Assembly: GCA_964552565.1 (NCBI GenBank)
Contig: CAZKGL010000001.1
Coordinates: 237,113-301,112 of the forward strand
Origin: an uncultured Gammaproteobacteria bacterium
Lineage (GTDB): Bacteria; Patescibacteriota; Patescibacteriia; UBA9934
DNA length: 64,000 nucleotides
Direction of reading: 5' to 3'
Both the position numbers and the translations under genes were made by a program. Position 1 is the stretch's first letter; each line of letters starts with the position of its first letter. Positions 22,594 to 57,350 of the stretch are shown piece after piece. The notes beneath the pieces were generated by a model, which saw only the letters and a list, made by a program, of their open reading frames with translations, searched no databases and was not told the DNA's origin.

Positions 22594-24714
22594 ATGAAAG
22601 AGTTCGTGCTCAGCGGTGCCGGGTTCGGCAGCCGGAAGATCGACTACGCCGCGGAGCTGAACGACGAGCAGCGCGAACCGGTCGTGCACGGTGACGGCGC
22701 GACCCTGGTGCTCGCCGGCGCGGGAAGCGGCAAGACGCGCGTCATCACGTACCGCGTCGCATGGCTCCTCGAGCAGGGCGTGCCGCCGGAGCGCATCCTG
22801 CTCCTCACGTTTACCAACAAGGCGGCGCGCGAAATGGTGAGCCGCGTCGAAGCGCTGCTTGGCGTCTATCCGCACGGGCTGTGGGCCGGCACATTTCACT
22901 CCATCGCCAACCGCATCTTGCGCATGTACGGCAGCCGCGAGGGCTTTGCGCCGAACTTTTCTATCCTCGACGAAGAGGACGCGGGCGACCTCATCAAGTT
23001 GTGCACGAAGCACCTGAAGATCGACACCGCGGGCAAGCGCTTCCCGAGTCCGAACGTGCTGAAGGGCGTCATCTCGTACCGCCGCAACGCCGCCATGTCG
23101 ATGGAAGACGTGCTCAGCCGCAAGCATCCGCACCTCTTGCCGATGCTCGCGGACATCGAACGCGTCGCGGACATGTACGAACGCCAAAAGGCGGAGCAGC
23201 AGGCGATGGACTTCGACGACTTGCTGACGGTGCTCTTGCGCCTGCTCCGCAACCATCCGGACGTGCGCGAAAAACTCGCGGACCAGTTTGCGTACATCCT
23301 CGTCGACGAGTTCCAGGACACGAACGTCATCCAGGCGGACATCGTCCACGCGCTGGCCGGGACGCACGGCAATATCCTCGCGGTCGGCGACGACGCGCAG
23401 AGCATCTACTCGTTCCGCGCCGCGGAGATCCGCAACATCCTCGACTTCCCGCGCCGCTACCCGGACGCGAAGGTGTTCCGTTTGGTGACGAATTACCGCT
23501 CAACGCCGCAGATCCTCGCTATCGCGAACAGCGTCATCGCGCACAACGAAAATCAGTTTGCAAAAGAACTCGTCGCCGCGGTGCACGACGGGGAGAGGCC
23601 GCAGCTCGTCCCTGCGAACTCCGCGTCGCAAGAGGCGCAGTTCGTCGTGGAACAGATCTGTGCGCTGCTTGACGAGGGCGCGGCGCCATCGTCCGTCGCC
23701 GTGCTGTTCCGCGCGGCATTCCACTCGCAACAAGTGGAATTCGAACTCATGAAGCGCGGTATTCCGTACGAGTACCGCGGCGGCATGAAGTTTTTCGAAC
23801 GCGCCCATGTCAAAGACGCGTTGGCGCATCTGCGCACCATCCATAACGTCAAAGACCTCATGGCGTGGAACCGCGCGCTGACGCTCCAGCCCGGACTCGG
23901 CCTCACGACCGCAAACAAGATCGCGACGACGCTCGCGCAGGCGGCGACGATCGACGAGGCGGTCGCATCGACGCCGGTGACGGCGCCCAAAGCACGGGCC
24001 GGATGGGAGGGGACGCAGCGTATGCTCCGCGCCATGCTCGCGGCACGGCCGTCGGTCGCCGACGTGCTCCGTGCGTTCGCCGCAAGCGACGACTACCGCG
24101 CGTATCTCGAAGGGGAATACCCGAACTGGCGCGAGCGCCTCGATGACGTCGAACAGCTCGCCGTGTTTGCGGAGCAGTACCAGGAACTCGGCGGGTTCCT
24201 CGACGCGGTGAGCTTGACCGCGGAATTCGGGGCGCGCATCGACGACCCGGCGCAACCTGAGGATGAAGCGGAAGGCGACGCGCTCGTGCTTTCAACGATC
24301 CACCAGGCCAAGGGGCTCGAGTGGGACACCGTCTTCATCATCAACCTTTCGGAGGGCGGGTTCCCGAGCGGACGCGCGCTCGACGAAGAGGGTGGGCTTG
24401 AAGAAGAGCGTCGGCTGTTCTATGTTGCCGCCACGCGCGCGCGGAAAAAACTCTTCCTCACATACCCCATCACTGCGGGCTACGAGCACGTGGAGCTCCG
24501 CCAGCCGTCGACGTTCCTCACGGAGATTCCCAAGCACGAGCTCGAAGAAGTGCGCTTGCGGTACGGCGGATCATGGCAAGCGACACAAGAACATCGCCGG
24601 GGTCCCCGCACCCCGGCATGGGACGACGAACCGACGATCGTGCTCGACGACGACGGCGAGCGCGTCACGAAGCCTGCGCCGAAATCATTCTTGCGTGATC
24701 TCGATGACCTGTAG
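22594..24714 (+). CDS. uvrD: ATP-dependent DNA helicase UvrD/PcrA family
   Basis: Walker A LAGAGSGKT, helicase motifs I-VI, 706 aa. A REP-like palindrome is embedded in-frame near the C-terminus (24596-24617). Confidence 0.9.
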   Translation: MKEFVLSGAGFGSRKIDYAAELNDEQREPVVHGDGATLVLAGAGSGKTRVITYRVAWLLEQGVPPERILLLTFTNKAAREMVSRVEALLGVYPHGLWAGTFHSIANRILRMYGSREGFAPNFSILDEEDAGDLIKLCTKHLKIDTAGKRFPSPNVLKGVISYRRNAAMSMEDVLSRKHPHLLPMLADIERVADMYERQKAEQQAMDFDDLLTVLLRLLRNHPDVREKLADQFAYILVDEFQDTNVIQADIVHALAGTHGNILAVGDDAQSIYSFRAAEIRNILDFPRRYPDAKVFRLVTNYRSTPQILAIANSVIAHNENQFAKELVAAVHDGERPQLVPANSASQEAQFVVEQICALLDEGAAPSSVAVLFRAAFHSQQVEFELMKRGIPYEYRGGMKFFERAHVKDALAHLRTIHNVKDLMAWNRALTLQPGLGLTTANKIATTLAQAATIDEAVASTPVTAPKARAGWEGTQRMLRAMLAARPSVADVLRAFAASDDYRAYLEGEYPNWRERLDDVEQLAVFAEQYQELGGFLDAVSLTAEFGARIDDPAQPEDEAEGDALVLSTIHQAKGLEWDTVFIINLSEGGFPSGRALDEEGGLEEERRLFYVAATRARKKLFLTYPITAGYEHVELRQPSTFLTEIPKHELEEVRLRYGGSWQATQEHRRGPRTPAWDDEPTIVLDDDGERVTKPAPKSFLRDLDDL

Positions 24715-28041: not shown

Positions 28042-28113
28042 CTAACGTTGAAAAACGAGCAGGGCATTCGGAATAGAGGTATCATATGTCCAAGTAATAA
28101 ATGCCTTATTCCT

Positions 28114-31100
28114 ATGCTCGCACGTTTGTTGACGTTTCGGCAGGCCCGTCCTTTGGCCTACCTCCTCGCCATTCTTGGCGCAGGTATCGTGTTTCTCCTC
28201 ACCGCGCAAAGCGCGTTTGCGGCGAACACTATCAGCACGAGTAAGTACGAAGAGTCGGGTACCGCGGACGGTACGCTCGACCGCATCCGCTTCGCGATGG
28301 ACGAGAACGTCACGGCGTGCACGTACGAGTCGGGCGACTGGAGTATCGACGCAGCGGGTACCGTTGGCCTGACCGCGATCACCGCGGTCTCCTGCACGAC
28401 GCTCGACGTGAACCTCGACATCACCGCGACATTTACCGCGAACATCACGGGCGGCGCAGTGAACCCGCAGATTGACTATAACAACCAGGGTCAGCCAAAC
28501 AGCATCTACCTCACGAGCGGCGCGATGACGAACAAGTTGAACCAGGCGATCACGGACGGCGCCAAGCCGCAAGCGAACGCGTTCACCTATGCCGACAACG
28601 ACGGCGACGGGAAGATTGACCGCGTGACCATCACCTGGTCGGAAGAAGTAGCGGCAGGATCTGTCATTGCGAAAAACGACCTCACCTTCCAGAACGTCGG
28701 TGACTTCACGGGCATTGCATTCGGTACGGATAACACCGACCTCATCACCGGCTCGACGTCAACAACACTCCTCGACCTCACGGCAGGTGCCGGCGCCGCA
28801 GAAGCGACTGCGCTGGACACGGCCGATTCCGGCAGTATCCGTATCGACTCGCAGAACGCCTGGTCCATTACTGACGGTACGAACGCGAACACCACGCTCG
28901 GTTCGCAGTCGGCGATTGCGACATATACTGACGGTGCCAAACCGGTCATCTCGACATTCGACTATTCGGACGCGGACGATGACGGCAAGGTCGATACCAT
29001 CACCGTCAACTACACGGAAACGGTTACGGCCGCATCGGTGCTCGCGGCAAACGACCTTACGCTCTCCGCGGTCGGCGACTTTACCTCGCTCGCATTCGGC
29101 GCCAACTCCACGGACCTTATTACGGGTTCGGTGACCTCTACCGCAATTACGCTCGGCACCGAGTCGACGGTAAAGGATACCGAAGACAACGCCGGCACGC
29201 TCGCCATCACGTCGCAAAATCTCTTCTCGCTGACGGACGGTACCAACACGAACGCCGACCTCGAGGCGCAGGCGCAGGCGACTGCGGTGGACGAGGCGAA
29301 GCCGGTCATCACCGCCTTCGACTACCAGGACGCGGACGATGACGGCAAGATCGACACGATCGTTACGAACTTCTCTGAAGAAGTCGTCGCGGGTAGTGTG
29401 TTGCGTCCGGCAGACTTGACGTTCTCGGCGGTCGGCGACTTTACGGCCGCGGCATTCGGCGCGAACACGACCGATGCGATCACCGGTACGGTCACCTCCG
29501 CGACGCTGACGCTCGGTACGGAATCCACGGCGAAGGACACTGCGGAAGGCGCCGGAACCATCGCCATTACCGCGCAAAACAACTTCTCCCTTGTCGACAC
29601 CGCGACGGCCGCGAACACGAACAACACCCTCGATGCACAGAGTTCGAGCGCGACGTTCGTGGACGAAGCCGCTCCGCAAATTGCGACGGTTACTTACTCT
29701 GATGCGGACGGCGATGCCAAAGTCGACACGCTAACCCTCGCCTACACCGAAACCGTGACTGCCGCGAGCGTCCTTGGCCAAAACGACCTCACGCTCTCCG
29801 CAGTCGGCGACTTCACGGCGCTCGCGTTCAGCAACTCGGCGACGGACCTTATTACCGGTTCGGTCTCGAGCACGGCGATCACCATGGGTACCGAATCGTC
29901 CGCGCAGGATACGGGTGACGATAGCCCGGCGCTCGCGATGACGAGCCAGAACCTCTTCTCCCTTACGGACGGCACGAACGCGAACGCCGAACTCGAGGCG
30001 CAGATGTCGAGCAGCGCGACGGTCGCCGACGGCGCACGTCCGATGCTCCTCACCACGTCGCCGGTAAACGGCGCCACGGGCGTCTCGGCCACGGCGAACA
30101 CGGTGCTCACGTTCTCCGAACCGATCAGCACCGGCTCGTTCACCTGGACCTCGACCGGCGGCCCTGCAATGGCAGACTTCGCGGCGGCGTGGACGGTTGG
30201 CGACACGGTCGTTACGCTGAACCCGCCGGGCAACATGGGCGGCGGCCTCCATACGGTCGACGTCACCGCAGCGCCGGACACTGGGAGTAACACGTATAAC
30301 GGCGCGGTCGCAGCGATCGCCGATCCATTCACTTTCACGGTGTCGACAAGCGGCACCACGAGCACGGGCACCTCGAGCACGGTTGGTGGCTCGGCAAACT
30401 ACTCGGTCCTCGTCGAGGCGCCGAACGGCGGCGAGACGCTGACTCCGGGCGAGAGCTACGACATCCGCTGGTCGACCGACGGCGGTTCGACAATGAGCGC
30501 GATGAACATTGCATACTCGACGAACAACGGCGACAGCTACACGGCGATCGTCTCTGACACGGCAAACGACGGCAGCTACACCTGGACCGTGCCGGACATC
30601 GATTCCGACCAGGTCTTCATCCGCATCCAGGGCACCGACCTTGCGACCGTCCTCGCGTACGACCGCTCGGACAGCGAGTTCACCATCGGTACCGTCGCGG
30701 CATCCGATGACGAGGATACGACGGACGAAGATGAGGACACGTCGAGCGACGACTCGGATACGGCGGAAACGTCGGATGATGTCACGGTCCCGTCGAGCGG
30801 TGAAACCGGCGCGTCGCCGGTGACCGGCGAGACGGAAGAGATCTCCGCGGTCGAGGCCGGCATGTACGTGCGCAGCGTGTACTTCGACACCGTCTACTAC
30901 CTGGAAGGCCAGGATGACGGTTCGATCGTCCGCCGCCCGTTCATGGACTCCCAGACCTACTTCACCTACTTCGACAGCTGGGATGAAGTGGAGACGGTGA
31001 CCGACGCCACGCTTCCGACCTTGACCCTCGGCGCCCCGATGCTTCCGCAGGCCGGCGTGGTCCTGGTCAAGATCCAGAGCGTCGCCAAGGTCTACGCCAT

Positions 31101-31293
31101 CGAAGGCGACGGCGAGCTCCGCTGGGTCACCAGCGAGTCGGTCGCCGAGGAGATCTACGGCGAAGACTGGGCCGACTACGTCATCGACATCCCGGACACG
31201 CTCTGGCCGCGGTTCGACCAGGGTGATGACATCGACTCGGATGAAGGCTTTGACACGAGCAACATGAAGACCCGCATGGAGGTGAACTCCTAG
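28114..31293 (+). CDS. Giant secreted surface protein with four tandem ~122-aa repeats, an Ig-like region, a Kre9/KNH-like beta-sandwich, an acidic linker and a conserved C-terminal domain
   Basis: Signal peptide MLARLL...SAFA. Repeats begin AFTYADNDGDGKIDRVTITWSEEV, AKPVISTFDYSDADDDGKVDTITVNYTETV, AKPVITAFDYQDADDDGKIDTIVTNFSEEV and AAPQIATVTYSDADGDAKVDTLTLAYTETV. The C-terminal module is shared with the 31389 gene. Confidence 0.8.
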   Translation: MLARLLTFRQARPLAYLLAILGAGIVFLLTAQSAFAANTISTSKYEESGTADGTLDRIRFAMDENVTACTYESGDWSIDAAGTVGLTAITAVSCTTLDVNLDITATFTANITGGAVNPQIDYNNQGQPNSIYLTSGAMTNKLNQAITDGAKPQANAFTYADNDGDGKIDRVTITWSEEVAAGSVIAKNDLTFQNVGDFTGIAFGTDNTDLITGSTSTTLLDLTAGAGAAEATALDTADSGSIRIDSQNAWSITDGTNANTTLGSQSAIATYTDGAKPVISTFDYSDADDDGKVDTITVNYTETVTAASVLAANDLTLSAVGDFTSLAFGANSTDLITGSVTSTAITLGTESTVKDTEDNAGTLAITSQNLFSLTDGTNTNADLEAQAQATAVDEAKPVITAFDYQDADDDGKIDTIVTNFSEEVVAGSVLRPADLTFSAVGDFTAAAFGANTTDAITGTVTSATLTLGTESTAKDTAEGAGTIAITAQNNFSLVDTATAANTNNTLDAQSSSATFVDEAAPQIATVTYSDADGDAKVDTLTLAYTETVTAASVLGQNDLTLSAVGDFTALAFSNSATDLITGSVSSTAITMGTESSAQDTGDDSPALAMTSQNLFSLTDGTNANAELEAQMSSSATVADGARPMLLTTSPVNGATGVSATANTVLTFSEPISTGSFTWTSTGGPAMADFAAAWTVGDTVVTLNPPGNMGGGLHTVDVTAAPDTGSNTYNGAVAAIADPFTFTVSTSGTTSTGTSSTVGGSANYSVLVEAPNGGETLTPGESYDIRWSTDGGSTMSAMNIAYSTNNGDSYTAIVSDTANDGSYTWTVPDIDSDQVFIRIQGTDLATVLAYDRSDSEFTIGTVAASDDEDTTDEDEDTSSDDSDTAETSDDVTVPSSGETGASPVTGETEEISAVEAGMYVRSVYFDTVYYLEGQDDGSIVRRPFMDSQTYFTYFDSWDEVETVTDATLPTLTLGAPMLPQAGVVLVKIQSVAKVYAIEGDGELRWVTSESVAEEIYGEDWADYVIDIPDTLWPRFDQGDDIDSDEGFDTSNMKTRMEVNS
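28560..30040 (+). repeat. Intragenic tandem repeats (4 copies, period about 366-375 bp) in the surface protein gene
   Basis: Visible periodicity of DxDxDGKxD-containing units at the protein level. Confidence 0.7.
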
Positions 31294-31388
31294 CGGCCAC
31301 AACCAAGAGACGGGGGACGCGTCCCCCGTCTCTTGTGTTTTTGATCGCGTTCAGGTAAAAAATCACCGTCATTTTTCTTTCTCACCTT

Positions 31389-40337: not shown

Positions 40338-43300
40338 ATGTCAGAAATCACAGCGCGCGTCGCCCCCCAGGCGGCGTCGGAAGGTCAGATTGCAGGTGCG
40401 GTTTGGCAGTTTATGACCTCGGTCAAAGAAGTGAAAAAACGCGACGGAGCAAGCCAGGCGTTTTCCGCTGACAAGCTTCGTGCGTCCGTCGAGAAGGCGC
40501 TCGCCGCAGCCGGGCAGAACAATGCCGACGCCTATGCCGGCCGCATCACGTCGCAGGTCGTGTCCCGCCTGACGCGCCAGTTTGACGGACACCGCGTTCC
40601 GACCACGTCGGAGATCCGCGAAGTCGTGTCCGTTGCCATCATCGACAACAACCTGATCCACGTCGCGAAGGCGTACATGGGGTTCAAGGCGCGGACGGAG
40701 GCTGCGGTGCCGGGCGAGAAGTACGGCAAGGGCCTTCCGTTCAGCCGCTACTTTACGAAGGACGGCGTGGCGCCGTACGCCATGCTCGAGTGGGAGAAGC
40801 GCAGCGCGGTCATCACGAACGAGAAGGGCAAGGTCGTGTTCGAACAGCACGACATCGAGGTTCCGAAGGGGTGGTCGCAGACCGCCACGAACATCGTCGC
40901 CCAGAAGTATTTCCGCGGGAAGGTCGGCACGCCGGAGCGCGAGACGTCCATGAAGCAGCTCATCGACCGCGTGGCCAAGACCATGGCGAACTGGGGCCGC
41001 AAGGACGGTTATTTCGCGACGAAAGAGGATGCGCAGGTTTTTGAAGATGAACTGACGTGGATTCTCATTAACCAGATGGCCGCGTTCAACAGCCCGGTCT
41101 GGTTCAATGTGGGCATTAATCCGCACCCGCAGTGTTCCGCGTGCTTCATCAACTCCGTGCAGGACGACATGCGTTCGATTTTGAACCTCGCGGTCACGGA
41201 AAGCATGCTCTTCAAGCAGGGCTCGGGCACGGGCAGCAACCTCTCCAAGCTCCGCTCGTCGCAGGAATACCTCGGCGGCAGCAACGGCAAGTCGTCCGGC
41301 CCCGTATCGTTCATGAAGGGCCTCGATGCCTTCGCGGGCATCGTCAAGAGCGGCGGCAAGACGCGCCGCGCGGCGAAGATGGTCATCTTGAACGTCGACC
41401 ATCCCGATGTCATGCAGTTCATCGAGTGCAAGGCGAAGGAGGAGCGGAAGGCCTGGACGCTGGTCGACGCCGGCTACGACAGCAGCATGGACGGCGAGGC
41501 GTACTCGAGTATTTTCTTCCAGAACGCGAACAACTCGGTGCGCGTGACGGATGGCTTCATGCGTGCGGTGGAGAAGGACGAGGAGTGGGTGACGAAGGAG
41601 ATTACGACCGGTAAGGATTCGCTGAAGTACAAGGCGCGCGACCTTTTCCGCGCCATGGCCGAGGCGGCGTGGCAGTGCGGCGACCCGGGCATCCAGTACG
41701 ACACGACCGTGAACCTCTGGCACACGAGCAAGAATACGGACCGCATCAACGCGTCGAACCCGTGCTCGGAATACATGTTCCTCGACGACACCGCCTGCAA
41801 CCTTTCGTCGCTCAACCTCATGAAGTTCCGCAAGGAAGCAAACGGCGTCATGGAGTTCGACGTGGAGGCGTTCACGAAGGCGTCGGAGGTCATGATTACC
41901 GCGATGGAGATCACGGTCGGCAACTCGAGCTACCCGACGCCGGCCATCGAGCAGAACAGCCACGACTTCCGCCCGCTCGGTATCGGCTACGCGAACTTGG
42001 GCGCGCTCCTCATGAGCCGGGGCCTTGCATACGACTCGGACGAGGGACGCAACCTCGCCGCCGCGATTACCGCGCTCCTTTCGGGCGCGACCTATGCGCA
42101 GTCGGCGCGCATCGCCGAGAAGATCGGCGCGTTCTCGGCCTTTGCCGTGAACCGCGAGCCGTGCATGGGCGTCATGGAGATGCACCGCCGCGCGTCCTAC
42201 GAGATGGCGCCCGCGGGCGTCCCGGCAGACCTCATGGCGGCGGCGAAGAAGAGCTGGGACGAGGTCGTCGACCGCGGCTACCAGCACGGGCTGCGTAACG
42301 CGCAGATTTCGGTCATCGCCCCGACCGGCACCATTTCGTTCCTCATGGATTGCGACACGACCGGCATCGAGCCGGACATCGCGCTCGTGAAGTACAAGTG
42401 GCTTGTGGGCGGCGGCATGCTGAAAATCGTGAACAATACCGTCCCGGAGGCGCTGACCCGCCTTGGCTACGGCGAGGCGGAGTGCAAGGATATCCTCGCC
42501 TACATCGACGAGAAGGACACCATTGAAGGCGCCCCGCACCTGAAGCCGGAGCACGTCGGCGTGTTTGACTGCGCGTTCAAGGCGAAGAACGGGACGCGCA
42601 CCATCCACCACATGGCGCACATCAACATGATGGCCGCGGTGCAGCCGTTCGTGTCCGGGGCCATCTCGAAGACGGTCAACATGCCGAACGAGGCGACGGT
42701 CGAAGATATCATGGACGTCTACATGAAGGGCTGGAAGCTCGGCTTGAAGGCGATCGCCATCTACCGCGACGGCAGCAAGCGCCAACAGGCACTTACCACG
42801 TCGAAAGAAAAAGACTCTGCGAAGGCGAATGCGAAAGAACTAGGCGGGGCCACCGCGCCCCGCCCGGAAGAGAAGAAGGATGAAACGGTCGCCGCGGCGA
42901 TCGAAACCGTAAAGGTGCAGGTGAACCCCGCAACCGCGTCGCGCCGCCGCCGCTTGCCGGACGAGCGCCGCGCCCTCACGCACAAGTTTGCGATCGGCAG
43001 CCACGAGGGCTATATCACCATCGGCCTCTACGACGACGGGACGCCGGGCGAGCTCTTCGTCACCATGTCGAAGGAAGGTTCGGTCATCAGCGGCCTCATG
43101 GATGCGTTCTCGACCAGCGTGTCGATTGGCCTGCAATACGGCGTGCCGCTCCACGTGCTCGTGAACAAGTTCGCGCACATGCGCTTTGAGCCGTCGGGCT
43201 TCACGAACAATCCCAACATCCGCATCGCGAAGTCCATCATCGACTACATCTTCCGCTACCTCGCCATGAAGTTCCTCCCGGTCGATGCACAGCTCCAGGT

Positions 43301-43601
43301 CGGCATCAACGTCGTCGAGACGCATGGCAATGACATAGGCGGGGTCACCGCGCCCCGCCAGGAAACGGTCGTGCAGCCGATCACCGACGCACAGCCGACG
43401 ATCTTCGCCTCACCGCTCGCGACCGACACGAACCCCGTCATGTCGCCGGGCACTGCGCCCGCGAAGACGACGCCCGGCCTCACGGCGACGTTCGACAACC
43501 AGTCGGACGCCCCGACGTGCGACACGTGCGGCAGCATGATGGTCCGCAACGCCGCGTGCTACAAGTGCCTGAATTGTGGGAGTACGAGTGGATGCAGTTA
43601 A
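40338..43601 (+). CDS. nrdJ: Ribonucleotide reductase class II (adenosylcobalamin-dependent), with N-terminal ATP cone and C-terminal zinc ribbon
   Basis: ATP cone, NPCSEY active-site motif, C-terminal CDTCGSMMVRNAACYKCLNC. Two REP-variant palindromes are embedded in-frame (42843-42864 and 43338-43359). Confidence 0.9.
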   Translation: MSEITARVAPQAASEGQIAGAVWQFMTSVKEVKKRDGASQAFSADKLRASVEKALAAAGQNNADAYAGRITSQVVSRLTRQFDGHRVPTTSEIREVVSVAIIDNNLIHVAKAYMGFKARTEAAVPGEKYGKGLPFSRYFTKDGVAPYAMLEWEKRSAVITNEKGKVVFEQHDIEVPKGWSQTATNIVAQKYFRGKVGTPERETSMKQLIDRVAKTMANWGRKDGYFATKEDAQVFEDELTWILINQMAAFNSPVWFNVGINPHPQCSACFINSVQDDMRSILNLAVTESMLFKQGSGTGSNLSKLRSSQEYLGGSNGKSSGPVSFMKGLDAFAGIVKSGGKTRRAAKMVILNVDHPDVMQFIECKAKEERKAWTLVDAGYDSSMDGEAYSSIFFQNANNSVRVTDGFMRAVEKDEEWVTKEITTGKDSLKYKARDLFRAMAEAAWQCGDPGIQYDTTVNLWHTSKNTDRINASNPCSEYMFLDDTACNLSSLNLMKFRKEANGVMEFDVEAFTKASEVMITAMEITVGNSSYPTPAIEQNSHDFRPLGIGYANLGALLMSRGLAYDSDEGRNLAAAITALLSGATYAQSARIAEKIGAFSAFAVNREPCMGVMEMHRRASYEMAPAGVPADLMAAAKKSWDEVVDRGYQHGLRNAQISVIAPTGTISFLMDCDTTGIEPDIALVKYKWLVGGGMLKIVNNTVPEALTRLGYGEAECKDILAYIDEKDTIEGAPHLKPEHVGVFDCAFKAKNGTRTIHHMAHINMMAAVQPFVSGAISKTVNMPNEATVEDIMDVYMKGWKLGLKAIAIYRDGSKRQQALTTSKEKDSAKANAKELGGATAPRPEEKKDETVAAAIETVKVQVNPATASRRRRLPDERRALTHKFAIGSHEGYITIGLYDDGTPGELFVTMSKEGSVISGLMDAFSTSVSIGLQYGVPLHVLVNKFAHMRFEPSGFTNNPNIRIAKSIIDYIFRYLAMKFLPVDAQLQVGINVVETHGNDIGGVTAPRQETVVQPITDAQPTIFASPLATDTNPVMSPGTAPAKTTPGLTATFDNQSDAPTCDTCGSMMVRNAACYKCLNCGSTSGCS

Positions 43602-43610
43602 ACGAGAGAG

Positions 43611-43640
43611 CATAGACGGGGTCCCCGCACCCCGTCTATG
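43611..43640 (+). repeat. REP palindrome, copy 1 (catagacggggtccccgcaccccgtctatg)
   Basis: Perfect 10-bp stem ATAGACGGGG/CCCCGTCTAT with loop TCCCCGCA. Confidence 0.8.
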
Positions 43641-43650
43641 ATTTTCCTGT

Positions 43651-44049
43651 ATGCGCCAAATCACCAAGCGTCTCCTACCAGGACAGGATCTTCGCGATGA
43701 AATCGAGAAGGTCGTCCATGACCATGATGTGAAAGCAGGAGTTCTGCTTTCCATCGTCGGATGTCTTACGTCCTTACGGCTTCGCGTCGCTGACGGGGTG
43801 ACGGTCAAGGAATGGAGCGAGAAGTTTGAAATCGTATCCGGCACCGGGACGGTATCGGTCAACGATAGCCACATCCATATCGCGGCCGCAAACCAGGAGG
43901 GCATGACGATTGGCGGGCATCTTAAACAGGGCTGCATCGTGGGAACGACGGTAGAGCTCGTGGTTCTTGCGTTCGATGACATTGCATATGTTCGCGAACC
44001 GGATGCTGCGACCGGATACGATGAGCTCGTTATCCGCGAAAAACCATAG
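43651..44049 (+). CDS. PPC/DUF296 domain protein (PD1-like DNA-binding)
   Basis: DUF296 fold pattern (IHIAAANQEGMTIGGHL...GTTVELVVLAFDD). The stop codon lies inside REP copy 2. Confidence 0.55.
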   Translation: MRQITKRLLPGQDLRDEIEKVVHDHDVKAGVLLSIVGCLTSLRLRVADGVTVKEWSEKFEIVSGTGTVSVNDSHIHIAAANQEGMTIGGHLKQGCIVGTTVELVVLAFDDIAYVREPDAATGYDELVIREKP

Positions 44050-44075
44050 ACGGGGGTCCCCGCACCCCGTCTATG
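44045..44075 (+). repeat. REP palindrome, copy 2
   Basis: catagacgggggtccccgcaccccgtctatg. Confidence 0.8.
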
Positions 44076-44082
44076 CTGTTCT

Positions 44083-44553
44083 ATGCGAACCTTTCGATGG
44101 CACGACGAACTGAAAAACGATAACGCGATTCATTTTGTTACTTCGGTGACGAAGGGGCGTACGCGGACTTTTGATGACGTGGCGCTCGCACTGTTACTGC
44201 TCGGAGAGATTCACGGATATGCGGAGAGATACTCGATGACGTTGTTTGCGTCGGTGGTCATGCCCGACCACTTCCATGCAATCCTTTGGCCGCAAGGGAA
44301 ACGGACTGTTCCGGAGTTTATGAAAGGGGTGAAGGGTTTTACCGCAAAGAAGGTCGCCGAGTATAGGCGGGGTGCGGGGACCCCGCCTATGGACGTGTGG
44401 CAAGACGAGTATTTTGATCACCTGATTACAGATGAGACTACGCTTGAAGAAAAGATTTGGTACATCATCCGCAATCCGATTGAGGACAACCTCATTGCCG
44501 AAGGCGGCGAGTACCCGTACCTTTTCGTCCAGCCCGATTACGATCCTCGCTAA
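44083..44553 (+). CDS. REP-associated tyrosine transposase (RAYT; IS200/IS605-like Y1 HUH transposase)
   Basis: HUH motif PDHFHAIL and C-terminal WQDEYFDHLI matching the RAYT WQxxY(F/W)DH motif. It contains an in-frame inverted REP copy (44363-44392) and is flanked by REPs. Confidence 0.75.
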   Translation: MRTFRWHDELKNDNAIHFVTSVTKGRTRTFDDVALALLLLGEIHGYAERYSMTLFASVVMPDHFHAILWPQGKRTVPEFMKGVKGFTAKKVAEYRRGAGTPPMDVWQDEYFDHLITDETTLEEKIWYIIRNPIEDNLIAEGGEYPYLFVQPDYDPR

Positions 44554-44579
44554 AGGCGGGGTGCGGGACCCCGCCTATG
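44552..44579 (-). repeat. REP palindrome, copy 4 (inverted), spanning the RAYT stop and the ATG of the next gene
   Basis: aaaggcggggtgcgggaccccgcctATGa. Confidence 0.7.
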
Positions 44580-45176
44580 AAAAAGAACGAACAGCCGGTT
44601 CTCGACGAACGCATCAAAGGCTTCCAAGGTTACGGCTTGGTGCAGCTCATCCATGGCACGGGGAAGGGGAAGACGACCGCTGCGCTCGGGCAGGCTATCC
44701 GGTGCGTGGGTTCCGGCCGGCGCGTCTGCATCGTCTACTTCGACAAAGGCGGAACGACGCACTACAGCGAACGGAAGGTGCTCGATGCGCTGGATGGCAT
44801 CGACTATGTCGCGTCCGGTCGTGACCGCATCGACCCGGTGACGGGACGATTTGATTTTTCGATCACCGACGAGGACAAGGCCGAGGCGGCGCGGGGGCTT
44901 GCTGCGGCGCGCGATGCATTGGCGGGCGACCACGAGGGTCGCCCCTACGATCTCGTTATTCTCGATGAGATCAATTCCACCGTCGCGCTCGGCATGCTTG
45001 GCGAGCAGGATGTGCTCGATGTGCTCGCGAAGAAGCGTCCGGACGTCGAAGTCATCCTCACGGGACGCAATCCGCCCCAGGCGTTCATCGACGCCGCACA
45101 TCTTGTCACCGAAATGACACTGCAGCGTCACTACTTCTATTCCGGCGTGAAGGCGCGGGAGGGGCTTGACTACTAG
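44577..45176 (+). CDS. Cob(I)yrinic acid a,c-diamide / cob(I)alamin adenosyltransferase (CobA/CobO/BtuR type)
   Basis: P-loop HGTGKGKTTAALG, conserved DE and TGR motifs. About 200 aa, typical of this family. Confidence 0.8.
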   Translation: MKKNEQPVLDERIKGFQGYGLVQLIHGTGKGKTTAALGQAIRCVGSGRRVCIVYFDKGGTTHYSERKVLDALDGIDYVASGRDRIDPVTGRFDFSITDEDKAEAARGLAAARDALAGDHEGRPYDLVILDEINSTVALGMLGEQDVLDVLAKKRPDVEVILTGRNPPQAFIDAAHLVTEMTLQRHYFYSGVKAREGLDY

Positions 45177-50576: not shown

Positions 50577-50618
50577 GAACTGAAAACGCACCCGAGGGCA
50601 GTGCGCCTTCAGGGTGCG
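50577..50618 (-). terminator. Terminator repeat, copy A (42 nt identical to 53106-53147 in inverted orientation)
   Basis: aactgaaaacgcacccgagggcagtgcgccttcagggtgcgt. On the minus strand it reads ACGCACCC...GGGTGCGTTTTCAGTT, immediately after the stop of the 50641 gene. Confidence 0.6.
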
Positions 50619-50640
50619 TGCGTCGCAACCGGACGTTCGT

Positions 50641-51015: not shown

Positions 51016-51044
51016 ACTGTAGCATAAAAATGGTGTTTTGTCAA
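51016..51044 (-). promoter_or_regulatory. Promoter TTGACA-17-TACAGT (minus strand), near-identical to the one after tRNA-Gln
   Basis: Minus-strand ttcaTTGACAaaacaccatttttatgcTACAGT, to be compared with 1394-1422. Confidence 0.45.
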
Positions 51045-51060
51045 TGAAATTTCCATAAAT

Positions 51061-51103: not shown

Positions 51104-51178
51104 TGGTGACCCTACGGGGATTCGAACCCCGATTTGATCCGTGAGAGGGATCCGTCCTAGCCCTTAGACGATAGGGCC
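51104..51178 (-). tRNA. tRNA-Glu (anticodon CTC), CCA encoded
   Basis: Hand-folded: acceptor GGCCCTA/TAGGGTC (one G-U pair), T-arm CGGGGTTCGAATCCCCG, anticodon stem GATCC/GGATC with loop CTCTCAC. Confidence 0.7.
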
Positions 51179-51636: not shown

Positions 51637-51665
51637 TTGCAAAAAGTGCAAAAACTTGCTAGTAT
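51637..51665 (+). promoter_or_regulatory. Promoter TTGCAA-17-TAGTAT for the B12-rSAM gene
   Basis: cTTGCAAaaagtgcaaaaacttgcTAGTAT. Confidence 0.4.
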
Positions 51666-51727
51666 TCGGACAGTTCTTTGGGACGAGAGTCCCGTTTTTC
51701 GTATCAACCCAAACCATAGGAGGCGAC

Positions 51728-53095
51728 ATGAAGGTCGTCCTGGTCCAGCCTCGCTCCCCATGGGGCAAGCAACCGTACCTCCCGAACGGCCTCCTCATGG
51801 TGGCCGCGCAGCTCATGTCCGTGGGCGTCAAGGTCGTCATCCTCGACGAGAACCTCGGCGACCGCATCGACGCGCTCGGCATGTGCGAGCACTTCGCGGA
51901 TGCGGACGCCATCGGCATCGGCGCGCTCGGCGCGCCGTACGTCCCGGAGGCGATCCGCGTGGCGGAGCGGCTGCGCAACCGTTACGGCACCCCGATCTTC
52001 GTGGGCGGTGAGGTCATCAACAACCTCGCGCCGGCGCAGTTCGTCCGCATGTTCGGCCACGTCGGGAGCATCGTGCAGATCAACGGCGACGCCGTGCTCG
52101 GCGAGAAGCTCGGGCTGGCGCTGCCGTCGATGTACGACACCTCGATGGCGCCGGCGATCGCCGCGCTTCCCGAGCGCGCCAAGGAGGCCTACTTCCGCAA
52201 GGAGTGGTGCCTCTTCACCTCGCAGGGCTGCATCTTCAACTGCAACTTCTGCGCGGCGGCGAAGGACCGGCGCGAGCGTTTCCGCGACCTGGATGCCTTC
52301 CGCGACGAGGTCACGTACCTCGCGCAGATGGTGCGGCGCTACGCCGGCCGCACGCCGCGGTACGAGGTGTACTGCTCCACGCTCGACGGGTGTCAAAACC
52401 CGGACGAGATGGAGCAGACGCTCGCGACCGTCACGGAAGTCTGCGCCGATGTCGACGTGTTCTTCCCGTTGCGGTTCCTCGCGACGGCGACGTGCACGGC
52501 GCGGGCGGTCCGCAAGGACCCGGACGTACTCCGGCGCTGGGGCGGCTACGGGCTCGGGTGCATCGGCATCGGCGTCGACGGCAACGACCCCGCGGTGTGG
52601 GCTCGCGAGAACAAGCGGCACAACACCGAGTCGGTCATCGCCGAGGCGCTCGCGCAGATCGCCCGTGCCGGGATCCAGCCCGAGGCCTTCATGGTCATGG
52701 GACTCCCCGGGGATGACATCGACGCGGTGGCCCGCGGCATGCGTGCGTGCTTCCGCTTCGCGGCGGAAGGCATCCGTCCCCGGCCGTACCTCGGCAAAGG
52801 GCATGCGCCGGGATCGGTGGGCTGGAAGGCGGGTGGGGCGGTCGTGGACGAGTTCCTGGAGCGCCCCGAGCGCCTGCTCGAGCTCGACTACGGCGGCCTC
52901 GCGTCGCCGGCCACCCACCCGGAGAGCCGCGCGAAGCGCTGGGCCGCGAACGCCGCGTTCCTCGCGACGTGCTACGGCCTCAAGCTCACCGAGGTCGGGT
53001 GCCCGACCCAGCCGCTGTTCCCGACCGAGAGCGTGTCGTTGCCCTGGCGCATGTTTGGCCGCGTAGCGAACCGCTTCGCCGGGCAGGACCGATAG
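51728..53095 (+). CDS. Cobalamin (B12)-binding domain radical SAM protein (class B radical SAM)
   Basis: N-terminal B12-binding Rossmann-like domain (MKVVLVQPRSPW...) and radical SAM CxxxCxxC (SQGCIFNCNFCAA). GGAGG RBS. Confidence 0.7.
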   Translation: MKVVLVQPRSPWGKQPYLPNGLLMVAAQLMSVGVKVVILDENLGDRIDALGMCEHFADADAIGIGALGAPYVPEAIRVAERLRNRYGTPIFVGGEVINNLAPAQFVRMFGHVGSIVQINGDAVLGEKLGLALPSMYDTSMAPAIAALPERAKEAYFRKEWCLFTSQGCIFNCNFCAAAKDRRERFRDLDAFRDEVTYLAQMVRRYAGRTPRYEVYCSTLDGCQNPDEMEQTLATVTEVCADVDVFFPLRFLATATCTARAVRKDPDVLRRWGGYGLGCIGIGVDGNDPAVWARENKRHNTESVIAEALAQIARAGIQPEAFMVMGLPGDDIDAVARGMRACFRFAAEGIRPRPYLGKGHAPGSVGWKAGGAVVDEFLERPERLLELDYGGLASPATHPESRAKRWAANAAFLATCYGLKLTEVGCPTQPLFPTESVSLPWRMFGRVANRFAGQDR

Positions 53096-53105
53096 GACAA
53101 TCCGT

Positions 53106-53147
53106 GACGCACCCTGAAGGCGCACTGCCCTCGGGTGCGTTTTCAGT
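53106..53147 (+). terminator. Terminator repeat, copy B (inverted duplicate of 50577-50618)
   Basis: ACGCACCCtgaaggcgcactgccctcGGGTGCGTTTTCAGTT directly after the rSAM stop. Confidence 0.6.
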
Positions 53148-53258
53148 TTCCACTGAGCCAATAAGGCCCCGATCGGCCCGTTATTGGATACGAGGCTCTC
53201 CACAAAAGAAGAACCGCCCGACGAAGCGCCGGGCGGTGCTTCATCGGACGGGAGGAGT

Positions 53259-56852: not shown

Positions 56853-57350
56853 ATGACGGATGAACAGCACAACACAATAGACGGGGTCCCCGCACCCCGT
56901 CCGAGCGATGACCTCCAAGCGAAGTGCGACGAGTATCTCGCCGGATGGAAACGCGCGCTGGCCGACTACGAAAACTTGCAAAAGCATAACGCACAGGAAC
57001 GCGAGAACGACCGACGCCGCATCCGCACGAACCTCGCGCTCGACCTCCTGCCCGTCGTCGACAACTTCGACCAGGCGCTCAAGTTCGCTCCGAAGGACGT
57101 CGATGCGAACTGGTTCGCCGGCGTCGCGCACATCGCGCGGCAGTTCGCGGAGGCGCTCAAGAACATGGGCATCGAACCCATCGAGTCCGTCGGCCATGTC
57201 TTTGACCCGAACCTCCACGAGAGCGGCGGGTCGCGCTGGGAGGACGACACGCCGGAGGGCGTGGTCATCGAAGAAGTCATCCGCGGATGGAAGATGGGCG
57301 ATATGGTCATCCGTCCTGCAAAAGTCATCGTGAACCAAAAATCCGAATAA
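56853..57350 (+). CDS. grpE: Nucleotide exchange factor GrpE
   Basis: GrpE coiled coil and C-terminal beta domain. A REP palindrome (56887-56913) is embedded in-frame near the N-terminus ([12 protein letters not shown]). Confidence 0.9.

Follow-up and report, generated by a model that had tools for sequence, protein, structure and literature searches.

The closest described counterparts of the locus reported here are the REPtrons, in which the gene for a REP-associated tyrosine transposase (RAYT) is flanked by its cognate repetitive extragenic palindromes (REPs) in inverted orientation. Co-evolution of RAYTs and REPs was described by Nunvar et al. (Nunvar 2010, PMC2817692), and a conserved threonine near the N-terminus and the sequence NP(L/V)(R/K)xG following the catalytic tyrosine are among the motifs of the family (Nunvar 2010, PMC2817692). 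REPs situated within genes, including the tnpA_REP genes themselves, have also been published (Di Nocera 2013, PMC3733652; Quentin 2018, bioRxiv 10.1101/279083); genes of DNA synthesis and repair are often hit, and UvrD and UvrA are listed among them (Di Nocera 2013, PMC3733652). Here we describe a locus in a 64,000-nucleotide stretch of contig CAZKGL010000001.1 (positions 237,113 to 301,112 of the forward strand), referred to below as the window, in which a RAYT gene, a gene for a PPC/DUF296 domain protein and a set of palindromes lie between nrdJ and cobA.

We put the probability at about 85% that this locus is a REPtron of a known kind: a domesticated and vertically inherited RAYT, present as a single copy in the window, residing with its own REPs in the nrdJ–cobA gene string, with the PPC gene as an unrelated later arrival. 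A NrdJ protein more than 90% identical to that of the window carries the name Candidatus Uhrbacteria, and by this similarity the host is identified as a Candidatus Uhrbacteria-like genome of the Patescibacteria, or candidate phyla radiation (CPR).

The transposase and its REPs

The RAYT gene (44083..44553, + strand) encodes a protein of 156 residues. It matches the Y1_Tnp family PF01797 with 37.6 bits and the NCBIfam model REP_Tyr_transpos, NF047646, at 97.4 bits, above the cutoff of 80; with the IS200 model NF033573, the score of 27 bits stays below the cutoff of 55. An AlphaFold2 model built on 81 relatives has a mean pLDDT of 90.8, and a Foldseek search with this model returned as its top match in the PDB the entry 4ER8_A (E 1.1e-8, TM 0.66), which is E. 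coli TnpA_REP in complex with a REP hairpin; the transposases of ISDra2 and IS608 came next. The motifs H63-F-H65 (within HFHAIL), W106-Q-D-E-Y-F-D-H113, Y127 and N131-P132 are all present. Residues H63, H65, W106, Y127 and N131 are invariant among the 81 relatives, with Q107 and P132 nearly so, and H63/H65, Y127 and N131 are equivalent to H59/H61, Y115 and N119 in the E. coli enzyme TnpA_REP. Thr20, which may be compared with the conserved N-terminal threonine of RAYTs, is nearly invariant. The sequence after the tyrosine is NPIEDN, the consensus in related proteins being V-E-D-G-L after NP; the NP(L/V)(R/K)xG motif is thus partly kept, its basic residue being absent, and the chain ends some 24 residues beyond the NP motif. 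No second RAYT copy was found within the 64-kb window, and the only exact matches to the RAYT were two short Logan contigs, both identical to the window. From the profile matches and the predicted fold, we conclude that the 156-residue reading frame encodes a REP-associated tyrosine transposase.

The REP unit has the form ATAG-RCGGGG, a loop of 7–9 nt (tccccgca or its complement) and CCCCGY-CTAT, giving a G+C-rich hairpin of 10 bp with an 8-nt loop and an ATAG foot. Four copies lie around the RAYT gene. REP-a (43612..43639, +), with the sequence ATAG-ACGGGG-tccccgca-CCCCGT-CTAT and hence a foot on both sides, is found 10 nt past the nrdJ stop codon and folds into a hairpin of −12.8 kcal/mol (z −7.4). 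REP-b (44046..44074, +), identical to REP-a apart from one extra G, lies 8 nt upstream of the RAYT ATG (−11.9 kcal/mol). REP-c (44363..44390, −), with the inverted loop tgcgggga, is located inside the RAYT reading frame, where it encodes Y94–M103 (YRRGAGTPPM), and REP-d (44552..44578, −), also inverted and with a 7-nt loop, fills the entire gap between RAYT and cobA (−11.8 kcal/mol). Each of the three short intergenic gaps in the nrdJ–PPC–RAYT–cobA string is nearly filled by one palindrome copy, to the extent that the repeats overlap the ends of the genes: the TAG stop of the PPC gene is that of the ATAG tag of REP-b, the TAA stop of the RAYT gene overlaps the left foot of REP-d, and the CTATG of REP-d supplies the ATG of cobA (44577-79).

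Four further copies are found in the window, all on the + strand and all in frame within genes. Two are in nrdJ, cTAG-GCGGGG-ccaccgcg-CCCCGC at 42841..42864, encoding LGGATAPRP, and CATAG-GCGGGG-tcaccgcg-CCCCGC at 43334..43359, encoding IGGVTAPRQ; these share the loop YCACCGCG and lie in the two variable C-terminal linkers of the protein. In an alignment of nrdJ orthologues, the REP peptides appear as presence/absence insertions of about 9–11 residues. Peptide 1 is present in the window and in the related locus L105 and gapped in L014, L107, L109 and L111, while peptide 2 is shared by the window, L014 and L105, with a gap of 9–11 residues in its place in L107, L109 and L111. The third, ATAG-ACGGGG-tccccgca-CCCCGT (56877..56901), encodes IDGVPAPRP at the N-terminus of GrpE, ahead of the GrpE domain, which begins at residue 19. 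The fourth is a degenerate copy without the ATAG tag, cgCCGGGG-tccccgca-CCCCGGc (~24594..24618), which encodes HRRGPRTPA in the C-terminal tail of a UvrD-family helicase, beyond the recognised domains, which end at residue 622 of 706.

A pattern search gave six matches in the window, where 0.22 would be expected. Six of the eight copies fall in a 1.74-kb region around the RAYT gene, and five of the eight are intragenic (two in nrdJ and one each in the RAYT, GrpE and helicase genes). Each copy folds as a DNA hairpin of 9–12 bp with an energy of −11.8 to −12.8 kcal/mol and a z-score of −4.3 to −7.4 relative to shuffled controls.

These results confirm the observations, and part of the interpretation, of an earlier sequence-only reading of the locus, which had called it a REPtron on the strength of the HFHAIL and WQxxYFDH motifs and the flanking palindromes. 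Both motifs are there, the RAYT assignment now has the support of the PF01797 and NF047646 matches, and the names given to the nrdJ, PPC, RAYT and cobA reading frames are each backed by a Pfam family. The four palindromes named in that reading lie where it had placed them, two of them forward and upstream of the PPC and RAYT genes and two inverted, the last overlapping the cobA start codon, and the family is concentrated near the RAYT gene, with copies dispersed elsewhere as well. Its consensus described a real palindrome with one G too many, the G of the tag being the first base of the stem, and its list omitted the four copies in nrdJ, GrpE and the helicase gene.

A conserved setting for RAYT and REP

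Relatives of the RAYT were gathered by profile search, a word-indexed homologue search having returned only three. The profile search defined a small clade of Patescibacteria RAYTs with 40–56% identity to that of the window; only 16 clusters were found at E ≤ 1e-30 among 1.84 billion representatives. The DNA of eight related loci was read (L017, L018, L105/106, L107/108, L109/110, L111, L112 and L113), the window providing a ninth genome. In six of the seven related loci with a readable upstream side, the RAYT gene directly follows nrdJ (L017, L105, L107, L109, L111 and L112, with host GC contents of 0.44–0.56); L113 is the only one with another context. On the downstream side, cobA is the immediate neighbour of the RAYT gene in L018 and L109; one open reading frame (ORF) of 68 residues separates the two in L111, and two or three ORFs do so in L107 and L112. 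The window order is repeated, without the PPC gene, in L109 and L111, as nrdJ–RAYT–cobA–(143-aa gene)–PBP2. Because this order is shared by genomes whose RAYTs are only 40–56% identical, the RAYT is best regarded as an old, vertically inherited resident. The comparison indicates that it has long been situated between nrdJ and cobA and that the arrangement is ancestral.

The gene string of the window, all on one strand, runs nrdJ, PPC/DUF296 gene, Y1_Tnp gene, cobA, DUF4178 gene and PBP2-type transpeptidase gene. The product of nrdJ (40338..43601, +) is a class II, B12-dependent ribonucleotide reductase (PF02867, 480 bits, with ATP-cone, Ribonuc_red_2_N and TSCPD domains), and that of cobA/btuR (44577..45176, +) is an ATP:corrinoid adenosyltransferase (PF02572, 165 bits). 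The two genes are functionally linked, in that the second enzyme makes the adenosylcobalamin cofactor of the first, and throughout the clade they remain neighbours. A search with Rfam found no cobalamin riboswitch upstream of nrdJ.

The disposition of the REPs is conserved along with that of the genes. In all nine genomes, which span GC contents of 0.44–0.66, an inverted REP lies about 290 nt into the RAYT reading frame. A REP with its ATAG foot directed toward the gene is found some 30–60 nt before the true RAYT start in seven of nine loci, as in L017, L109 (relative to the true start), L111, L112 and L113, where the spacing is 29–58 nt; the annotated N-terminal extensions of two of the proteins, P0133 and P0136, are this upstream REP translated. 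REP-b is the window's counterpart of this element. An inverted REP follows the RAYT stop by 4–7 nt in five genomes, among them L105, L107, L112 and L113, and the inverted-flank layout, with a forward REP upstream and an inverted REP after the stop, is seen in the window and in L105, L107, L112 and L113. The equivalent of REP-a, a forward REP after nrdJ, is present in L014, L017, L105 and L107. In L109 (9975-10075), two inverted REPs about 72 nt apart form a REPIN-like doublet between nrdJ and the RAYT gene; the window holds singletons only.

The CGGGG/CCCCG stems are invariant over the nine genomes, and the ATAG tag (CATAG) is found in the window copies and in all relatives, but the 8-nt loops are specific to each genome. 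The loop of the in-frame REP differs from the flanking loops of its own locus by a mean of 0.33 mismatches, compared with 4.04 for the flanking loops of other genomes, and none of 20,000 permutations gave a match as good. The match of the loops is co-evolution of RAYT and REP at orthologous loci.

A metagenome-assembled genome (MAG), CAYRYG01, carries 11 exact copies of the tagged REP 22-mer on 10 contigs, in the form (c)ATAGGCGGGGTCCCCGCACCCCGCC. The proteins encoded by its nrdJ, uvrA and cobA genes are 54–70% identical to those of the window, from which its relationship to the window's organism follows; the nrdJ genes are 77–81% identical in DNA and the three orthologues are partly syntenic. 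In the MAG, the orthologues of nrdJ and uvrA contain REP copies, as does a probable orthologue of glmS; genic placement was assigned here by orthology to window genes only, since spurious ORFs are long in DNA of high GC content. The MAG (L003-L016; GenBank CAYRYG010000002 and others) is titled 'uncultured Gammaproteobacteria', a label that is probably wrong, an Uhrbacteria-like CPR genome being the likely source. In this MAG (L014, 1735-5174), the interval between nrdJ and cobA is occupied by about 2.8 kb of other ORFs, without a RAYT gene; a REP and a run of T still follow nrdJ, and a Nudix-like ORF seems either to be fused to cobA or to lie immediately before it. Separately, the RAYT orthologue upstream of cobA in L018 (249-774) gives tblastn matches in two frames (249-593 and 460-744), with the in-frame REP intact; it is either a frameshifted pseudogene or the result of an assembly error.

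The REP inside the transposase frame is conserved in its position. In the AlphaFold2 model, the REP-c peptide forms a surface coil between the helix at residues 76–96 and the strand at 106–115, that is, in the αC–β4 loop. The sequence RRG-x3-PP-[IM] is found at this site in 18 of 18 clade members, several of which have a second copy 10–60 residues downstream; outgroup RAYTs have only RRSKG followed by LWQDE. The codons are fixed as xGG CGG GGn nnn nnn nCC CCG CCT in 9/9 genomes, with ATn next in 8/9. They are kept in a genome of 44% GC in which CGG makes up 5% of arginine and CCG 17% of proline codons, and in the window, where CCT accounts for 3% of proline and AGG for 1% of arginine codons. 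The stem pair adjoining the loop co-varies (UA in four, CG in three, GC in one, with one mismatch). Judged from these sequences, the constraint at the REP-c site acts on the DNA and not on the peptide.

Similar expansions occur more widely. Of 228 RAYT relatives, 65 have expansions of at least 19 residues between the HUH and WQ motifs, 12 of them with exact tandem peptide repeats, and at four distant loci, the in-frame expansions are copies of the palindromes flanking the gene. Long tandem peptide repeats of up to ~100 residues, such as 3 × SRRQEPPLL... and 5 × SWFAD..., are present in the loop between the helix and WQ in many relatives of other lineages, including P0248, P0259, P0271, P0290, P0315, P0333, P0337 and P0349; such repeats in other RAYTs are presumably translated REPs or arrays of bacterial interspersed mosaic elements (BIMEs). 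The idea that a REP within a RAYT reading frame was undescribed was dropped, this being a published hallmark of TnpA_Y1 subclass 2.4 (Quentin 2018, bioRxiv 10.1101/279083).

It is conceivable, if rather doubtful, that REP-c is a selected cis element, either an autoregulatory hairpin in DNA or mRNA that the RAYT binds or a protected master copy ensuring that enzyme and substrate are inherited together. Its occurrence at one site and in one orientation in 18/18 members despite protein identities of only 44–56%, the fixed rare codons with compensatory change in one stem pair, and a loop that tracks the REP of its own genome would all be expected of such an element, and the αC–β4 loop is placed near the region of REP recognition (Quentin 2018, bioRxiv 10.1101/279083). 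The same pattern would nevertheless be produced by a RAYT that preferentially renews nearby copies in cis, combined with a permissive loop. Moreover, the insertions in tnpA_REP genes of other lineages are in other loops and of variable number, which speaks for tolerance rather than design, and Quentin et al. judged the insertions they described to be peripheral and probably neutral (bioRxiv 10.1101/279083). A broader version of the idea, which we hold to be less probable again, would have REP-c sense or limit RAYT expression as a cis hairpin, or serve as the master from which REPs are renewed; the nrdJ–cobA setting would then couple expression of the RAYT to the synthesis of deoxynucleotides and thereby to replication, a time at which single-stranded substrate is present.

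The PPC gene and the origin of the segment

The PPC gene (43651..44049, +) encodes 132 residues that match PF03479 over their full length with 92.6 bits. It was absent from all eight related RAYT loci and from all 80 distant metagenomic RAYT loci inspected. Homologues number more than 300, mostly from Patescibacteria. The three closest on long contigs, with 65–72% identity and host GC contents of 0.39–0.47, are found in three different neighbourhoods, and none of these three loci has a RAYT gene (0/3), nrdJ, cobA or REP-like hairpins. The simplest reading of these comparisons is that PPC is a common stand-alone CPR gene that was inserted, later and in this lineage, between nrdJ and RAYT, with duplication of the upstream REP. 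In the window, it stands between REP-a and REP-b, two direct REP copies of nearly the same sequence; we infer that recombination at a REP was the most likely route of arrival, a RAYT-mediated event being the alternative. On the distribution of its homologues, the PPC gene is not part of the REPtron, nor a partner of the RAYT. The sequence-only reading was thus right about the identity of this domain and wrong to suggest a cargo or partner role, recurrent PPC–RAYT pairs being absent from the eight clade loci, the 80 distant RAYT loci and the three PPC loci. Its proposal that the element had been inserted between nrdJ and cobA likewise fails, given the nrdJ–RAYT order in six of seven readable related loci.

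Some observations weigh against the reading of the locus as a resident REPtron of a known kind, or at least against parts of it. Only two of the eight REP copies in the 64-kb window are far from the RAYT gene, and the REPs here are mostly singletons rather than REPIN doublets. The AG of the foot, which pairs with the cleavage site in E. coli, is kept here, with A for G as the first base; in E. coli, all single-base changes of GTAG abolished cleavage, and recognition of ATAG must therefore differ in detail. Catalysis and the targeting of single strands are, for CPR RAYTs generally, deduced from homology. Finally, the RAYT and PPC genes share a low GC content at third codon positions (GC3; 0.62 and 0.60, respectively, compared with 0.76–0.88 in the neighbouring genes and 0.88 in nrdJ itself), and for this reason, the two may have been replaced jointly, as one segment, by recombination from a relative of lower GC content.

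The same GC3 values, together with a dip in GC content to 0.52–0.55 over 43600-44550 compared with 0.63 for the whole window, would suit a mobile unit, either a REPtron or an IS200-like element, in which PPC travelled as cargo or as a partner and which had recently been inserted between nrdJ and cobA. The entire segment is also bounded by REPs, and nrdJ and cobA are found without RAYT or PPC in the related MAG (L014). We nevertheless think such a unit very unlikely: in six other genomes, none of them with PPC, orthologues of the RAYT with 40–56% identity are likewise located after nrdJ; the IS200 model scores below its cutoff and there is one copy in the window; and PPC homologues are never beside a RAYT gene in the loci examined. 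Synteny thus largely refutes the idea of a unit. Highly improbable too is the view that the palindromes have no relation to the transposase and serve the nrdJ–cobA operon simply as intrinsic terminators or regulatory hairpins of an ordinary kind: the hairpins lie exactly in the intergenic gaps, and REP-a was picked up in a terminator scan as terminator-like because a T-rich tail follows its hairpin, but REPs also stand in frame at five coding sites, 11 ATAG-tagged copies occur in the related MAG, the loops co-vary with the RAYT locus across genomes, Rfam gives no match in the locus, and a terminator role is compatible with a REPtron and no replacement for it.

The window contains repeats of other kinds. 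A perfect 42-nt inverted repeat (50578-50619 and 53107-53148, 2487 nt apart), with partly palindromic arms and unrelated to the REP family, brackets a gene for a B12-binding radical SAM protein (51656-53095; PF04055 and PF02310). The copies of a 31-nt inverted repeat (1388-1418 and 51020-51050, 90% complementary), which contains TTGACA, each adjoin one tRNA gene (1266-1336, +, and 51107-51178, −) and are probably shared tRNA promoter or leader sequences. An ORF of 1081 residues (28048-31293) contains three tandem units of ~360 nt at 28852-30010 that are 61–81% identical, which suggests a repeat-domain surface protein. After this ORF comes the untagged palindrome GACGGGGGACGCGTCCCCCGTC (31309-31330), probably its terminator; it matched a loose form of the REP pattern and was excluded from the family, having no ATAG foot and another loop.

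Proposed mechanism and comparison with known systems

By analogy with E. coli TnpA_REP, the RAYT would bind the folded REP and its 5′ foot on single-stranded DNA, cleave through Tyr127 with a metal held by H63, H65 and N131, and then rejoin the strands. REP copies would in this way be spawned and replaced mostly near the RAYT gene and occasionally elsewhere; the clustering of copies and the match of their loops are consistent with an enzyme that works mainly on DNA close by and keeps renewing the copies around it. Copies would persist where they are harmless or useful, as in intergenic gaps, flexible protein linkers and the surface loop of the RAYT itself, a distribution that agrees with the findings of Di Nocera et al. 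(PMC3733652). Those between genes may serve in addition as hairpins for termination or attenuation, and they even provide stop codons (TAG) and start codons (ATG). We infer that in RNA these hairpins probably work by terminating or attenuating transcription and by covering the start of cobA, the terminator-like pattern of REP-a being what is seen directly.

A resident REPtron in this setting extends REP/RAYT systems to a CPR lineage with a genome of ~0.84 Mb, where such repeats would not be expected to be tolerated; the REP nonetheless stands in the reading frames of several housekeeping genes and of the transposase itself. With shared synteny, a shared internal REP site and genome-specific loops, the nine orthologous loci constitute a compact natural experiment on RAYT–REP co-evolution. 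The analysis also removes PPC as a false lead for a REPtron partner and flags a public MAG that is probably mislabelled. What is new is confined to minor traits: the CPR host lineage, the ATAG tag, the conserved αC–β4 insertion and the nrdJ–RAYT–cobA synteny.

Of the systems compared, the IS200/IS605 elements IS608 and ISDra2 share the Y1 HUH fold with the window RAYT and, as is predicted for it as well, recognise hairpins on single-stranded DNA through a guide tetranucleotide. The window RAYT differs in scoring below the IS200 cutoff (27 against 55), in being a single copy in the window that is syntenic across genomes, and in having no tnpB in its neighbourhood. Its hairpins are inverted, whereas the left and right ends (LE and RE) of the insertion sequences are on the same strand. 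Membership of IS200/IS605 was ruled out on the score, the single window copy, the inverted hairpins and the missing tnpB.

The intragenic GTAG/CGTC REPs (Di Nocera 2013, PMC3733652) and the Rickettsia palindromic elements resemble the window copies as in-frame palindromes in the linkers and termini of functional genes. The genes affected are also of the kinds reported there, with nrdJ and a UvrD-type helicase gene hit here and uvrA in the related MAG, and the feet of the GTAG REPs supply stop codons as well (PMC3733652). The differences are the ATAG foot family, the unusually high intragenic share (5/8) and the ~0.84-Mb genome. Members of the GTAG-REP superfamily are stem-loops of 20–40 bp with GTAG, or a listed degenerate form of it, at one end. 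The repeat here has such a stem-loop and the tag ATAG, while the variants listed for the superfamily keep the first G (PMC3733652); by analogy, we regard the ATAG REP as working like a GTAG REP and not as a literal member of the superfamily.

The E. coli REPtron (TnpA_REP/YafM, 4ER8; PMC2817692, PMC3479197) agrees with the window locus in the fold of the transposase, the HUH motif, the catalytic tyrosine and the asparagine at Y+4, and also in the inverted flanking REPs, in hairpins whose 4-nt foot ends in AG, and in a transposase gene found once, here within the window. By this comparison, the ATAG foot corresponds to GTAG, the guide tetranucleotide of the E. coli REPs. The two transposases are, however, only 17% identical in sequence, and that of the window, at 156 residues compared with 165, is without the inhibitory C-terminal tail. 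The foot reads ATAG in place of GTAG, the stems pair perfectly where those of E. coli contain mismatches, the copy number is low without BIME arrays, and the host is a CPR organism.

The nearest match among described RAYTs is with TnpA_Y1 subclass 2.4 (Quentin, Siguier, Chandler, Fichant 2018, bioRxiv 10.1101/279083), which corresponds to RAYT group 4 (Bertels 2017, PMC5581495). Subclass 2.4 is described chiefly from Cyanobacteria and Bacteroidetes, with GT[AG]G feet instead of ATAG; its variable insertion lies between β3 and αC, whereas the conserved insertion found here is between αC and β4, and the clade studied here has retained one copy at a fixed site throughout. Shared features are the in-frame REP insertion in the gene, the double-foot REPs (REP-a, REP-b and REP-c, with ATAG...CTAT), the lack of a C-terminal extension, G-C pairs at the bottom of the stem, and a distribution scattered over many phyla with mostly vertical inheritance. 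Compared in this way, by described features, the window RAYT probably belongs to TnpA_Y1 subclass 2.4, or RAYT group 4.

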